From the NCBI RefSeq assembly GCF_016714285.1, contig NZ_JADJNN010000008.1:68669-132668 (forward strand): a DNA stretch of 64,000 nucleotides. Direction: 5' to 3'. This document shows positions 47,083 to 54,891 of this stretch, one piece after another; within the stretch, counting starts at the first letter, position 1, and each line of letters begins with the position of its first letter. This stretch comes from Nannocystis sp. (GTDB lineage: Bacteria > Myxococcota_A > Polyangia > Nannocystales > Nannocystaceae). Position numbers and translations under genes: made by a program. A model generated the notes under the pieces. It saw only the letters and a list, made by a program, of their open reading frames with translations. It had not been told where the DNA came from and ran no database searches.

Positions 47083-50000
47083 TCAAGGTCCGGCGTCGCG
47101 CGCGGGGGTTGCGGTCTGCGGGGCCGCGTAGGGGAAGATGTCCGAAGCGCGCAGCTCGACCAGCTCGGCCTGCAGCAGCTGGCGCAGCGCGGCGAGGTCG
47201 ATGCGCCGACGATCGGCGAGCACGCTGACGATCGCGGGGGCGGTGAAGTGGTGCTGCAAAGCTTGCAGCTGCGGTGCGGCGAGCGACTGCAGGGTTGCGA
47301 GCTCCCAGGCACGCGGGTCGCCGGTCTCGCCGCGCTCGGCCCATACTTGGACCCAGTCGGGCACGCGTCGCGGGGGGATGCGGGTGGCGACCATCTCGCG
47401 GGTGAGGGCGACGCGGGCCGCGGCGATGCGATCGTCGCCGGGATCGGGGGCACGCAGGATCTCGAGCAGGAGCGTGAGGGCCTCGCGGCTCTTGTCGGCC
47501 TGGGTGCCGAGGCGGCCGAGCAGGGCGGCGCCGTCGATGTCGCGGGCGCCGGCGATGAGCAGGCCGGAGGCGCTGTAGGCGAGGCCGCGGGCCTCGCGGA
47601 TCTGCTGGAACACGAGGCCGCTCATGTCGCCGCCCAAGATCTGGTTGAGCAGGCGCGCCGCGGGGCGATCGCTGCGGGGCAGCGGCGGGCTGGCCAGGGC
47701 GACCTCGATCTGGGCCTGGGCCATGTCGCGGTGGAGGAAGAAAATTGTCGGGGTCGCGAGTGGACGCAGGGCTCGGGGCGGTCGCGGGGCGACGGGCTTG
47801 CCGGCGCTCGCGGGCAGGGCGGTCACCAACGCGTCGGCGATGCGGGGGCCGAAGTAGAGGTGATGACGCGAGCTGTCCGCGAGGACAGCCAGCTCGCGGG
47901 CGAGCTCGGGGCCGCGGGCCTGGCGGAGCTGGCGGTCGCCCGGGCGGGTGAGGATGTCGCTGGCGGGGCCGCGGCGGGCGTACTCGGCGAGGGCCTCGGC
48001 GAGCGCCTCGGGGTCGTCCTGCTCGTCGCGGCGGAGGCTGAGGGTGTTGGCGAGGAGGTCGCGGACGGTGTCGTCGTCGAAGCCGGGGCGGCGCAGCCAG
48101 GTGTCGAGGAGGGCGAGGCTCTGCTCGAGGTGCTCGTCGACGCCGGTGACGAAGATGCGGGTCTGGTCGGCGCCGCAGTCGGTGTCGATGGTGGTGCCGA
48201 GCTGGAACAGGCGGCGCTGGAGCGCCTCGGCGTCGAGGTCACCGGCGCCGGAGAGGGCGAGGAGGTCGAGGGCGTGGCCGAGGAGCGGGCGCTGGCGGGT
48301 GCCGAGCTCGAAGCGGAGGGTGAGGGAAAACAGGTCGCTGCGGCGGTTCTGGGCAGCGATCAGGGGGCCGGCGGGGGTGCTGCGGCGGGTGTAGTCGCGG
48401 CCTTCTTGCAGCCACACGGGGTCGGGGTCGGGGGCGGCCTCGGCGAGCAGCTCGGCGGCGAAGCGGCTGATGCGGGCGGGGTCGATCGGCACCGGGGTGA
48501 TGACCGGCTTGGGCATCTTCGGCGGGTCGTGGCGGCCGCGCTTGCGCACGATCGCTACGTGGTCGGCGCCGAGGTAGGTGGCGGCGACGCGGAGGATGTC
48601 GCCGTGGGTGACGCGGGCCATGGCGGCGACGAAGCGGACGTGCTCGGGCCAGCTGCGGCGCTCGAGGTAGGCGTCGGCGATCCAGCTGACGCGGCCGTTG
48701 TTGGACTCGCGGGCCATCTGCTCGCGGATCTGCTCGTGGAGGACGATCGCGTCGATGTCGGCCTGGGTGAAGGCGCCGGCCTTGAGGTCGGTGATGACGG
48801 AGCGCAGGAGGCGTTCGACCTCGGCGTGGCTCTGGTCGTCGCGGGCGACGCCGGTGAGCGCGAAGTAGCCGCCGTCGACCAGCTGCTCGCCGTGGCCGTC
48901 GGCGTCGGGCAGCTCGCCCGAGAGCAGGAGGCGGACGTTGAGCAGGCCGCTGACGTCGTTGTCGACGAGCTCGGCGAGCACGGCGAGCGCGGGCTCGTCG
49001 GGGTGGCCGGCGGGGACGGTGCGCCAGGCGAGGGTGACCGACTGCTCGCCCTCGGCGGTGATGATGCGCTCGATGCGACCGACGGGGCCGTCGAGGGCGC
49101 CGGGCGGGGGTGGTGGGAGCTGTCCCGGAGACCATGTCGCAAAGGCCAGCTCGAGGGCGGCGAGGGCGGCGGTGGGGTCGAGGTCGCCGGCGAGGATCAG
49201 GGCGGCGTTGTTGGGGAGGTACCAGCGTCGGTGGTAGGCGACCATCTCGGCGAGGGCGGGGTTACGCAGGTGCTCGGCGTCGCCGAGGATCGTCTGGGTG
49301 CCATAGGGGTGGCGCGGGAACAGGGCCAGGCGCAGGGCCTCGTCCATGCGGTCCTCGGGGGTGTCGAGGCTGATGTTCTTCTCCTCGTAGACGGCCTCGA
49401 GCTCGGGGAGGAACAGGCGGAAGGTGGGCGCGGCGAGGCGCTCGGCCTCGACGCGGGCCCACGCGGCGAGGCGCGCGGCCGGGAGGTCGGCCATGTAGAC
49501 GGTGGTGTCGTCGGTCGTGAAGGCGTTGACGTCGAGGATGCCGAGGCCGGCGTAGAGGCGGTCGAGCTCGTTGGGGATCGCGGTGACGGCCGCGGACTGC
49601 GTGGCGGCGTCGATGTCGGCGAGGATCGCGGCGCGCTCGCCGGGCGTGGAGCGCGGGAGCCGATCGTAGAGGGCGGCGGTGCGGGCGAGGTGCGGCCGCT
49701 CGGCGTCGGCGTCGAGGGTGCCGAGCCTGGCGGTGCCCTTGAACATCATGTGCTCGAGGTAGTGGGCGAGGCCGGTCGAGTGGGCGGGGTCGTGGCGGCT
49801 GCCGGCTCGAATCGCGATCCAGGCGGAGATCCGGGGCTGCTCGCGGTCGACGCTGAGGTAGACGGTGAGGCCGTTGGACAGGCGGTGGATCGTGACGGCG
49901 AGAGGGTCGTCGGGGAGCGGGGTGGGGAGGGGGCGGGGCGTCGGGGGCGTAGGCGATCGCGGTGGGGCCGCCGGTGCGGGGGCGACGGGGGGGCGAGGAG

Positions 50001-50090
50001 GGAGGTGGCGGTGCTTTCGGTCATGTCGCTGGGACGAGGGGCGCAGGCCAGGAGGGCCGCGAGGCAGAGCAGGAGGCGGGTGCGGCTCAC
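47083..50090 (-). CDS. M16-family (pitrilysin-like) zinc peptidase, two M16 units; apparent frame disruption between the signal-peptide/lipobox ORF (GTG 50090) and the catalytic ORF
   Basis: The inverted zinc motif is HYLEHMMFKG (HxxEH). The main ORF extends only with an Arg/Pro-rich, signal-less N-terminus. A separate frame starting at 50090 reads MSRTRLLLCLAALLACAP and merges with the main frame in a Pro-rich linker. Confidence 0.7.
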
Positions 50091-54442: not shown

Positions 54443-54891
54443 TGCAGGTTGTCTTCGGGGATGATGTCGACGATCGCCAGGACGTGGCGCACGGAGAGGA
54501 GGCGGAGGGTCTCGTCCCACGGGACGGCGATGCCCTGGTCCTTGGCGAACAGGACCTGGGCGCCGACCGGGATGCCGCTGACGTTGGCGCCGAGGCCGGT
54601 GTCGTCGTCGTCGTCGTCGTCGTCGTCGTCGGCGATGTAGGCGGCCTTGGGCTGGGTGCGGGCGACCTCGACGACCTCGGCGAGCAGGGCCTCGCTGTGG
54701 CTCTCCTTGGCGCCGGCGGGGAGATAGAGGCCGGACTCGCTGCGGTCGGGGGTCTTGACGAGGCGGACTAACACGCGCGGGCCGAGCGGTTGGATGTGAC
54801 GCGAGACCTTGCGCGGGCGCTCGGGTCCGGCGGAGTCAGTGACGACGATCTCGGGCCCATCCTCGGGGCGCTTGCGCGGCTTATTCGACAT
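54439..54891 (-). CDS. GroES (Cpn10)-like protein with a basic N-terminal extension and a poly-Asp10 insertion
   Basis: IQPLGPRVLVRLVKTPDRSESGLYLPAGAKESHSEALLAEVVEV...GIPVGAQVLFAKDQGIAVPWD...RHVLAIVD aligns to GroES. The insert [13 protein letters not shown] is encoded by (GTC)10 on the plus strand. Confidence 0.6.
   Translation of the reverse strand: MSNKPRKRPEDGPEIVVTDSAGPERPRKVSRHIQPLGPRVLVRLVKTPDRSESGLYLPAGAKESHSEALLAEVVEVARTQPKAAYIADDDDDDDDDDTGLGANVSGIPVGAQVLFAKDQGIAVPWDETLRLLSVRHVLAIVDIIPEDNLQ
54601..54630. repeat. (GTC)10 trinucleotide microsatellite inside the GroES-like CDS (poly-Asp)
   Basis: gtcgtcgtcgtcgtcgtcgtcgtcgtcgtc. Confidence 0.9.

Follow-up and report, generated by a model that had tools for sequence, protein, structure and literature searches.

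A block of five minus-strand genes occupies positions 47083 to 54891 of a 64,000-nt stretch of Nannocystis sp. (assembly GCF_016714285.1, contig NZ_JADJNN010000008.1, positions 68,669 to 132,668; hereafter the window). In the order of transcription, the genes encode a GroES-like (Cpn10-like) protein, an SppA protease, an AAA_21 ATPase, a small protein and an M16 peptidase. We consider it likely that this block is a composite of two unrelated parts that share one transcription unit: a resident envelope-protease cluster and a horizontally acquired, probably anti-phage, ATPase/nuclease cassette that is defective here. The cassette would have been inserted exactly between the SppA and M16 genes of the resident cluster. 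A preliminary description of the window had listed the same five genes, and their content and coordinates hold. The domains it assigned, namely a Cpn10-like protein bearing an acidic tract, an SppA of family S49, a non-transporter AAA_21 ABC ATPase and an M16 peptidase, agree with Pfam and NCBIfam matches. The ATPase is 100% identical to an NCBI protein from Nannocystis sp. that is annotated as an AAA family ATPase.

The loci that we compared are contigs encoding homologues of the ATPase, of its small partner protein or of the Cpn10-like protein. The intact five-gene order was found in three Nannocystis-like loci [L001, from the metagenome-assembled genome (MAG) GCA_016717175, L004 and L008], in which the fourth gene encodes a protein of 254-269 aa. 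In two further loci the ATPase/partner pair was degraded to fragments of one or both genes. L065 (N. pusilla) retains ATPase remains at 13434..14052, and L066 retains ATPase and partner remains, including a second ATPase N-terminal fragment, at 13220..14300. These N. pusilla-group fragments are the result of independent cassette decay. By tblastn, no trace of the ATPase or the partner was detected in L067 and L068 from cultured Nannocystis, where the Cpn10-like, SppA and M16 genes are present with a gap of 340-380 nt. The pair was also not found in two Myxococcales MAGs (L069, L070), in which the distance between SppA and M16 is 10 nt. The more distantly related L071 and L072, whose Cpn10-like proteins are 59-64% identical, contain only the Cpn10-like and SppA genes (spans 8001-11074 and 8001-11068, respectively), which overlap by 4 nt and are preceded by a radical-SAM gene; both loci lack M16 as well as the pair. 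Taken together, the pair is intact at three orthologous loci, degraded at two and absent from six, and an M16 gene downstream of SppA is confined to the Nannocystis clade.

The five-gene order thus recurs in the close relatives L001, L004 and L008; in L065 and L066 the pair is reduced to fragments, and in L067-L072 it is missing. The preliminary description had named the absence of the ATPase and the small gene from orthologous loci as the observation that would speak against a five-gene system. This absence is what we found in L067-L072, and the five-gene reading fails because of it.

The pair also occurs in unrelated contexts, with the ATPase gene directly upstream of the partner gene: in Archangium violaceum (L003), Polyangium mundeleinium (L007), Sorangium cellulosum So ce26 (L073) and a metagenome contig (L074). 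At these four loci it stands alone, without any protease or Cpn10 gene. ATPase and partner are separate, overlapping genes in all seven loci with an intact pair. Flanking proteins share 66-83% identity among L001, L004 and L008, the ATPase and partner only 44-53%, which points to faster divergence or to exchange of the pair. In the window, which has about 71% GC overall, the GC content falls from 0.72-0.76 to 0.58-0.65 exactly across 50100-51800. The GC content at third codon positions (GC3) is 0.78-0.80 for the pair versus 0.93-0.97 for the Cpn10-like, SppA and M16 genes (window, L001 and L004), and it is below that of the neighbouring genes also in Archangium and Polyangium. The pair is compositionally foreign. 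Our comparison shows that it is an autonomous, mobile and often decaying two-gene unit.

The assumption of a single system had been based on the gene junctions, most of which we could confirm by direct reading. The Cpn10-like stop and the SppA start overlap (caATGAgc), the SppA stop codon TAG is followed by ccc and then by the ATPase start codon ATG, and the ATPase stop overlaps the start of the small gene in GTGGTGA. The fourth junction, a GTGA shared by the small gene and M16, is present at 50090..50087. However, the open reading frame (ORF) that opens with GTG at 50525 stops at 50211 and gets to this GTGA only via a +1 frame change near 50277-50264. A promoter/terminator scan, which is uninformative for a myxobacterium of 72% GC, detected no terminator-like sites inside the block and one weak promoter-like site outside it; the lack of terminator-like sites is weak evidence for co-transcription.

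In a five-gene system, the ATPase and the small protein would regulate or power the proteases and the Cpn10-like protein, be it in quality control, secretion or a protease-armed defence. The tight or overlapping junctions, the lack of terminator-like sites and the gene order common to L001, L004 and L008 despite flanks that are only 66-83% identical are consistent with such a system. However, the pair is absent or degraded at eight orthologous loci at which the Cpn10-like and SppA genes (and M16 where present) are intact, it stands alone in four unrelated contexts, its composition is foreign, and M16 itself is missing in distant relatives. Moreover, SppA and M16 carry export signals, which the ATPase and the partner lack, and the partner in the window is devoid of its catalytic half. 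We regard a single five-gene system as extremely unlikely. Overlapping start and stop codons are no proof of a functional system, as a mobile cassette can sit seamlessly in a housekeeping operon, and a "protease-armed" five-gene system should not enter catalogues.

The fourth gene had been described as encoding a small Cys/His protein but is actually the C-terminal remnant of a protein of ~255 aa. By tblastn and nucleotide alignment to L001, the remnant of this Toprim-like partner was located at 50087..50525 (minus strand), corresponding to residues ~104-254 of the family. It is distributed over two frames, frame A (50525..~50277) and frame B (~50266..50087), and the standing ORF (50525..50211) comprises 104 aa. 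With P0121 as query, tblastn matched two stretches, residues 104-192 (50543..50277) and residues 196-254 (50266..50090). The frame from ~50266 to the TGA at 50087 is clean, GC3-rich coding sequence. The switch between the frames is due to a −G and a +CT change relative to L001 (net +1).

Two other interpretations of the small gene were considered and rejected. An intact Cys/His protein is contradicted by its N-terminus, which aligns to residue ~104 of the 254-aa family, and by the C-terminal 59 residues, which lie in the other frame. A second gene starting at a GTG inside frame B is disfavoured relative to a frameshift, because the combined product of frames A and B is collinear with the intact homologues.

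On both sides of the cassette the window is nearly identical to L001, with 98.0% nucleotide identity at 59311..51589 and 98.6% at 50514..44001. A stretch of 330 nt of L001 (11295..11624), equal to 110 partner codons, has no counterpart in the window. This loss is in-frame, and the deleted 110 N-terminal codons held the invariant E13 and D92xD94.

The gene preceding the remnant (50519..51796, minus strand; 425 aa) is the first gene of the inserted cassette and encodes a Rad50/SMC/AriA-like ABC ATPase (AAA_21/AAA_15). The residues of Walker A, signature and Walker B that are invariant in the family are all kept. The same gene contains a segment that differs from L001 despite the 98% identical flanks. 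At 50515..51589 (minus strand), blastn of the window against L001 showed ~650 nt without detectable nucleotide similarity, followed by a last 424 nt with 82.7% identity. In successive bins of 35 aa, the identity of the ATPase protein to the L001 copy was 100, 62, 25, 37, 42, 48, 48, 48, 74, 85, 94 and 62%, and residues ~70-280 reached only 25-48%. According to these alignments, the ATPase is a mosaic, in which the hypervariable middle was exchanged for a divergent allele. In the AlphaFold2 prediction, residues ~55-295 are mainly β-strand with short helices.

Sequence profiles of the ATPase reached Rad50, SMC3 and AriA around Walker A only, and the best structural matches were the heads of Rad50, SMC and RecF. 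The best PADLOC matches were the generic AriA (top), mad3 and AbiLi models, of which the AbiLi model covers residues 8-409 and thus nearly all of the protein (E 9e-9). We conclude that the protein is a Rad50/AriA-like, non-transporter ABC head with a hypervariable middle.

The structural matches to Rad50, SMC and RecF would also be expected of a housekeeping DNA or RNA module with a function in repair, chromosome maintenance or the cell cycle, similar to Cran1, an archaeal member of the OLD family, or to proteins of the RecF/Rad50 type. A role outside defence has been reported for Cran1, an OLD-family ATPase (PMC12796447). The failure to find the pair on viral contigs and the lack of clear defence islands around it would also suit a housekeeping function. 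In contrast, the patchy presence, the decay or loss in close relatives, the foreign GC3 and the hypervariable middle domain are traits of accessory immune genes. A housekeeping role is therefore rather unlikely, and we favour a mobile module that probably acts against phages.

The partner would be the effector of this module. Its family is uniform in length (about 250-280 aa; ~255 aa for an intact copy) and comprised 73 matches among the 90% clusters and, at 50% identity, 679 representatives (E≤1e-3). The named members found so far are all from Myxococcota and bear the title "hypothetical protein". Searches against Pfam (with 13 family members), PADLOC, NCBIfam and PHROGs gave zero matches. 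In particular, DUF4435 was not matched at E≤10, nor were Pfam TOPRIM_OLD, RloB (PF13707) and DUF4276 (PF14103). In alignments of 42 and 70 members, D92, D94, E150 and Q155 are invariant; E13, D14 and H90 are invariant in the former and at least 90% conserved in the latter. The AlphaFold2 model of the partner (predicted local distance difference test score 94.2, predicted template modelling score 0.90) has a β-α-β core and a helical C-terminal half. In this model, E13 is located at the end of β1, H90-x-D92-x-D94 at the end of β3, and E150 on the helix after β4. The catalytic set of BpOLD consists of the Toprim residues E400 and D455xD457 and of E508, with which the helical domain contributes a residue of its first helix (PMC6755086). 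Intact partners possess this OLD-type set, and the window copy, which lacks residues 1-~103, does not. The structure model and the motifs thus point, with moderate confidence, to a fold resembling Toprim and containing a conserved acidic site. The assignment is graded as moderate because Foldseek of the model against the PDB gave nothing at E<0.2 and a profile hidden Markov model of the family gave nothing at E≤10 against PDB sequences.

Considering the ATPase and the partner together, we propose that the pair is a split OLD/PARIS-like module that, by analogy, is probably directed against phages. The ATPase would serve as sensor and scaffold, with the hypervariable middle domain recognizing a phage or other foreign cue. 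By analogy with the characterized systems, ATP binding or hydrolysis would license the Toprim nuclease upon such a cue, and the nuclease might then cleave DNA or tRNA and abort the infection. The earlier suggestion of a defence function is therefore plausible for the two inserted genes and not for the proteases, and the module of the window lacks the putative nuclease core. Here, a 330-nt in-frame deletion has removed the Toprim core, the remnant is additionally frameshifted and the interior of the ATPase has been exchanged. The window cassette is defective, and at most an orphan ATPase is made. With the effector lost the module would be non-functional, and expression of the orphan ATPase would presumably occur via read-through from the protease operon.

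The loss of the nuclease gene and not of the ATPase gene would also be compatible with selection against a toxin. The pair could accordingly be viewed as a selfish toxin-antitoxin (TA) or addiction module without benefit for the host, with the nuclease as toxin and the ATPase as antitoxin. Pfam labels AAA_21 as "putative AbiEii toxin, type IV TA", and the overlap of the two genes, their foreign composition and their mobile distribution are in line with this idea. However, the ATPase gene is fragmented, too, in L065 and L066. The same logic moreover serves defence in PARIS, so that an addiction module overlaps with the proposed immune function more than it excludes it. As a separate explanation, we consider it very unlikely.

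Several points weigh against our interpretation of the block as a resident cluster with an inserted defence cassette. The role of the pair in phage defence is deduced by analogy, its stand-alone contexts are no obvious defence islands, and a scan of viral contigs with the partner alignment revealed zero relatives. The pair occupies the same slot in loci with 66-83% identical flanks, with overlapping start and stop codons, which could indicate that it has resided there for long and has to some degree been co-opted by the operon. Assembly errors may account for the frameshifts in the window, several of which are in C homopolymers. An error of this kind can explain neither the 330-nt deletion nor the allele swap.

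We also hypothesize, tentatively, that the ATPase and the ~255-aa partner constitute an undescribed class of split OLD-like immunity. In such a class, a hypervariable insert that is not a coiled coil would sense the cue and control a Toprim nuclease. In Nannocystis, the module would have a fixed slot within the housekeeping protease operon, where alleles are swapped by recombination via the conserved gene ends and decay occurs repeatedly. The novelty is confined to the ATPase and to its partner family, which is Toprim-like and lacks annotation. This sizeable family, whose members always come with an AAA_21 ATPase, has been overlooked by current defence finders. In addition, a single chromosomal site offers a natural series of intact, allele-swapped, truncated, fragmented and empty states, which is useful for studies of module turnover.

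The genes surrounding the pair belong to the resident cluster. The Cpn10/GroES-like gene (54439..54891, minus strand) encodes 150 aa and scores 36.6 bits with Pfam Cpn10 (cutoff 21.1). Its product can be aligned end to end with GroES, but it has a basic N-terminal extension of 30 aa and a poly-Asp tract at the position of the GroES roof hairpin. This tract of 8-12 D/E residues is kept across all orthologues. The best NCBIfam GroES model gave 36.5 bits versus a cutoff of 136, which is far below the equivalog cutoffs. As judged by these features, the protein, which is cytoplasmic, appears to belong to the Cpn10 fold family without being an orthodox GroES. Upstream of its gene, a tandem repeat of 41-44 nt in four copies (54908..55086) spans the 3′ end of an 802-aa gene and extends into the intergenic region; Tandem Repeats Finder reported a period of 41, 4.0 copies and a score of 210, and the window has one additional 44-nt unit compared with L001. 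This repeat may be a control region of the operon.

The SppA gene (51800..54442, minus strand; 880 aa) encodes a protein of the 67K type and is 98% identical to that of L001 at the nucleotide level. Peptidase_S49 is matched in two stretches (Pfam, 2.1e-69), and the score with TIGR00705 SppA_67K is 320.2 bits, above the equivalog cutoff of 311.45. By this measure the protein resembles the E. coli-type SppA (protease IV), from which it differs by an additional N-terminal region of ~370 aa; it also has a Sec-type signal peptide. The 4-nt overlap between the Cpn10-like and SppA genes is kept in L001, L004, L008, L065-L068, L071 and L072, and the coupling of the two genes is common to all relatives examined, including the distant ones without M16. 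We conclude that the Cpn10-like and SppA genes are a resident, vertically inherited cluster and that M16 is a resident of the Nannocystis clade. In a literature search, we found no description of a conserved coupled Cpn10-like/SppA pair or of a Cpn10/SppA/M16 system. The translational coupling of these two genes lacks an explanation so far and may merit a separate study.

The last gene of the block (47083..50090, minus strand) encodes an M16 lipoprotein peptidase with two halves (Peptidase_M16, 6e-18; M16_C, 2e-31). The HxxEH zinc motif, present as HYLEH, and both M16 halves are features shared with pitrilysin-type enzymes. The GTG at 50090 starts a lipoprotein signal peptide with a lipobox, MSRTRLLLCLAALLAC. 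As assembled, this start and the body containing HYLEH are in different frames. Compared with the intact 1004-aa M16 gene of L001, the Pro-rich linker has five deletions in C-runs within 70 nt (49933..50003), with a net change of −7 nt. These deletions are either homopolymer assembly errors or the mark of a real pseudogene. From the known functions of the two families, SppA and then the pitrilysin-type M16 peptidase would act sequentially on signal peptides and other peptides.

Downstream of M16, a gene of ~430 aa (45735..47000, minus strand) contains a long Thr/Gly/Asp-rich low-complexity repeat (TGTDTGTG...), in which the window and L001 differ by a 12-nt repeat unit around 46557. A second SppA paralogue of 892 aa (42206..44884, plus strand) is convergent to the cluster and is adjoined by TerB-like and MutS2/Smr genes. 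This second SppA/TerB-like/MutS2-Smr arrangement (42206..44884, 44936..45670 and 39587..42166, all on the plus strand) is kept in L001, L004, L008 and L067-L069. On the other side of the block, upstream of the 802-aa membrane protein gene, a DUF4159 gene (about 57630..58470, minus strand) has a 1-nt deletion at 58414 relative to L001. The deletion frameshifts the gene, and the standing ORF is therefore without a Pfam match; it may be an assembly error. The window has an unusually strong GC skew of +0.18 across its 64 kb. When only third codon positions are considered, the skew amounts to −0.55 in minus-strand genes (51800-54442, 55054-57462) and +0.36 to +0.48 in plus-strand genes (42206-44884, 39587-42166). 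It therefore depends on the DNA strand rather than on which strand is coding. The N. pusilla loci show a weaker skew (~0.13), and in loci of other Myxococcota it is close to zero.

Among the known systems, the ATPase/partner pair can be compared with the fused OLD proteins, AbiL and PARIS. Like OLD Class 1 (P2 Old, TsOLD) and Class 2 (BpOLD, Gabija GajA), it combines an ABC ATPase with a Toprim-like site composed of a Glu, a DxD and a Glu on the first helix past the core. Unlike in OLD Classes 1-3, ATPase and Toprim-like part are located on separate polypeptides. It also differs from Class 2 in lacking an adjacent helicase, as no gene of the UvrD/GajB type was called beside the pair in any of the seven loci. 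Moreover, Pfam TOPRIM_OLD is not matched, and the PADLOC match to GajA is confined to the Walker A region. AbiL (AbiLi, an AAA_21 ATPase, and AbiLii, an RloB protein) and the AAA_21 + DUF4276 systems share with the pair a gene order in which a small Toprim-like partner comes after an AAA_21 ATPase, but our partner family matches neither RloB nor DUF4276.

In PARIS, ATP-dependent sensing of a phage protein by AriA leads to the release of AriB, which cleaves tRNA (PMC11464382; PMC10568477). AriB has 35 kDa, and AriA carries a helical IS1/IS2 coiled-coil bundle, by which its hexameric scaffold is built (PMC11464382). The pair differs from PARIS in its partner, which has ~255 aa and lacks the DUF4435 (PF14491) match of AriB, and in its ATPase, which matches AriA in sequence only around Walker A and has an insert that is predicted to be largely β-strand where that of AriA is helical. 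Furthermore, no copy of the pair was found on contigs of phages or satellites. We therefore file the pair as an OLD/PARIS-like variant and not as a member of these systems, since the defining partner domain or fusion is missing for PARIS, AbiL/RloB, DUF4276 and the fused OLD proteins alike. On the other hand, the pair has in common with PARIS ("Class 4" OLD-like) the adjacent, often overlapping genes, of which the first encodes an ABC ATPase of the AAA_15/21 type and the second a separate protein with a Toprim fold; its ATPase has the AAA_15/AAA_21 domain of AriA, and the AriA model is its best match in PADLOC. PARIS is thus the closest characterized analogue of the pair.

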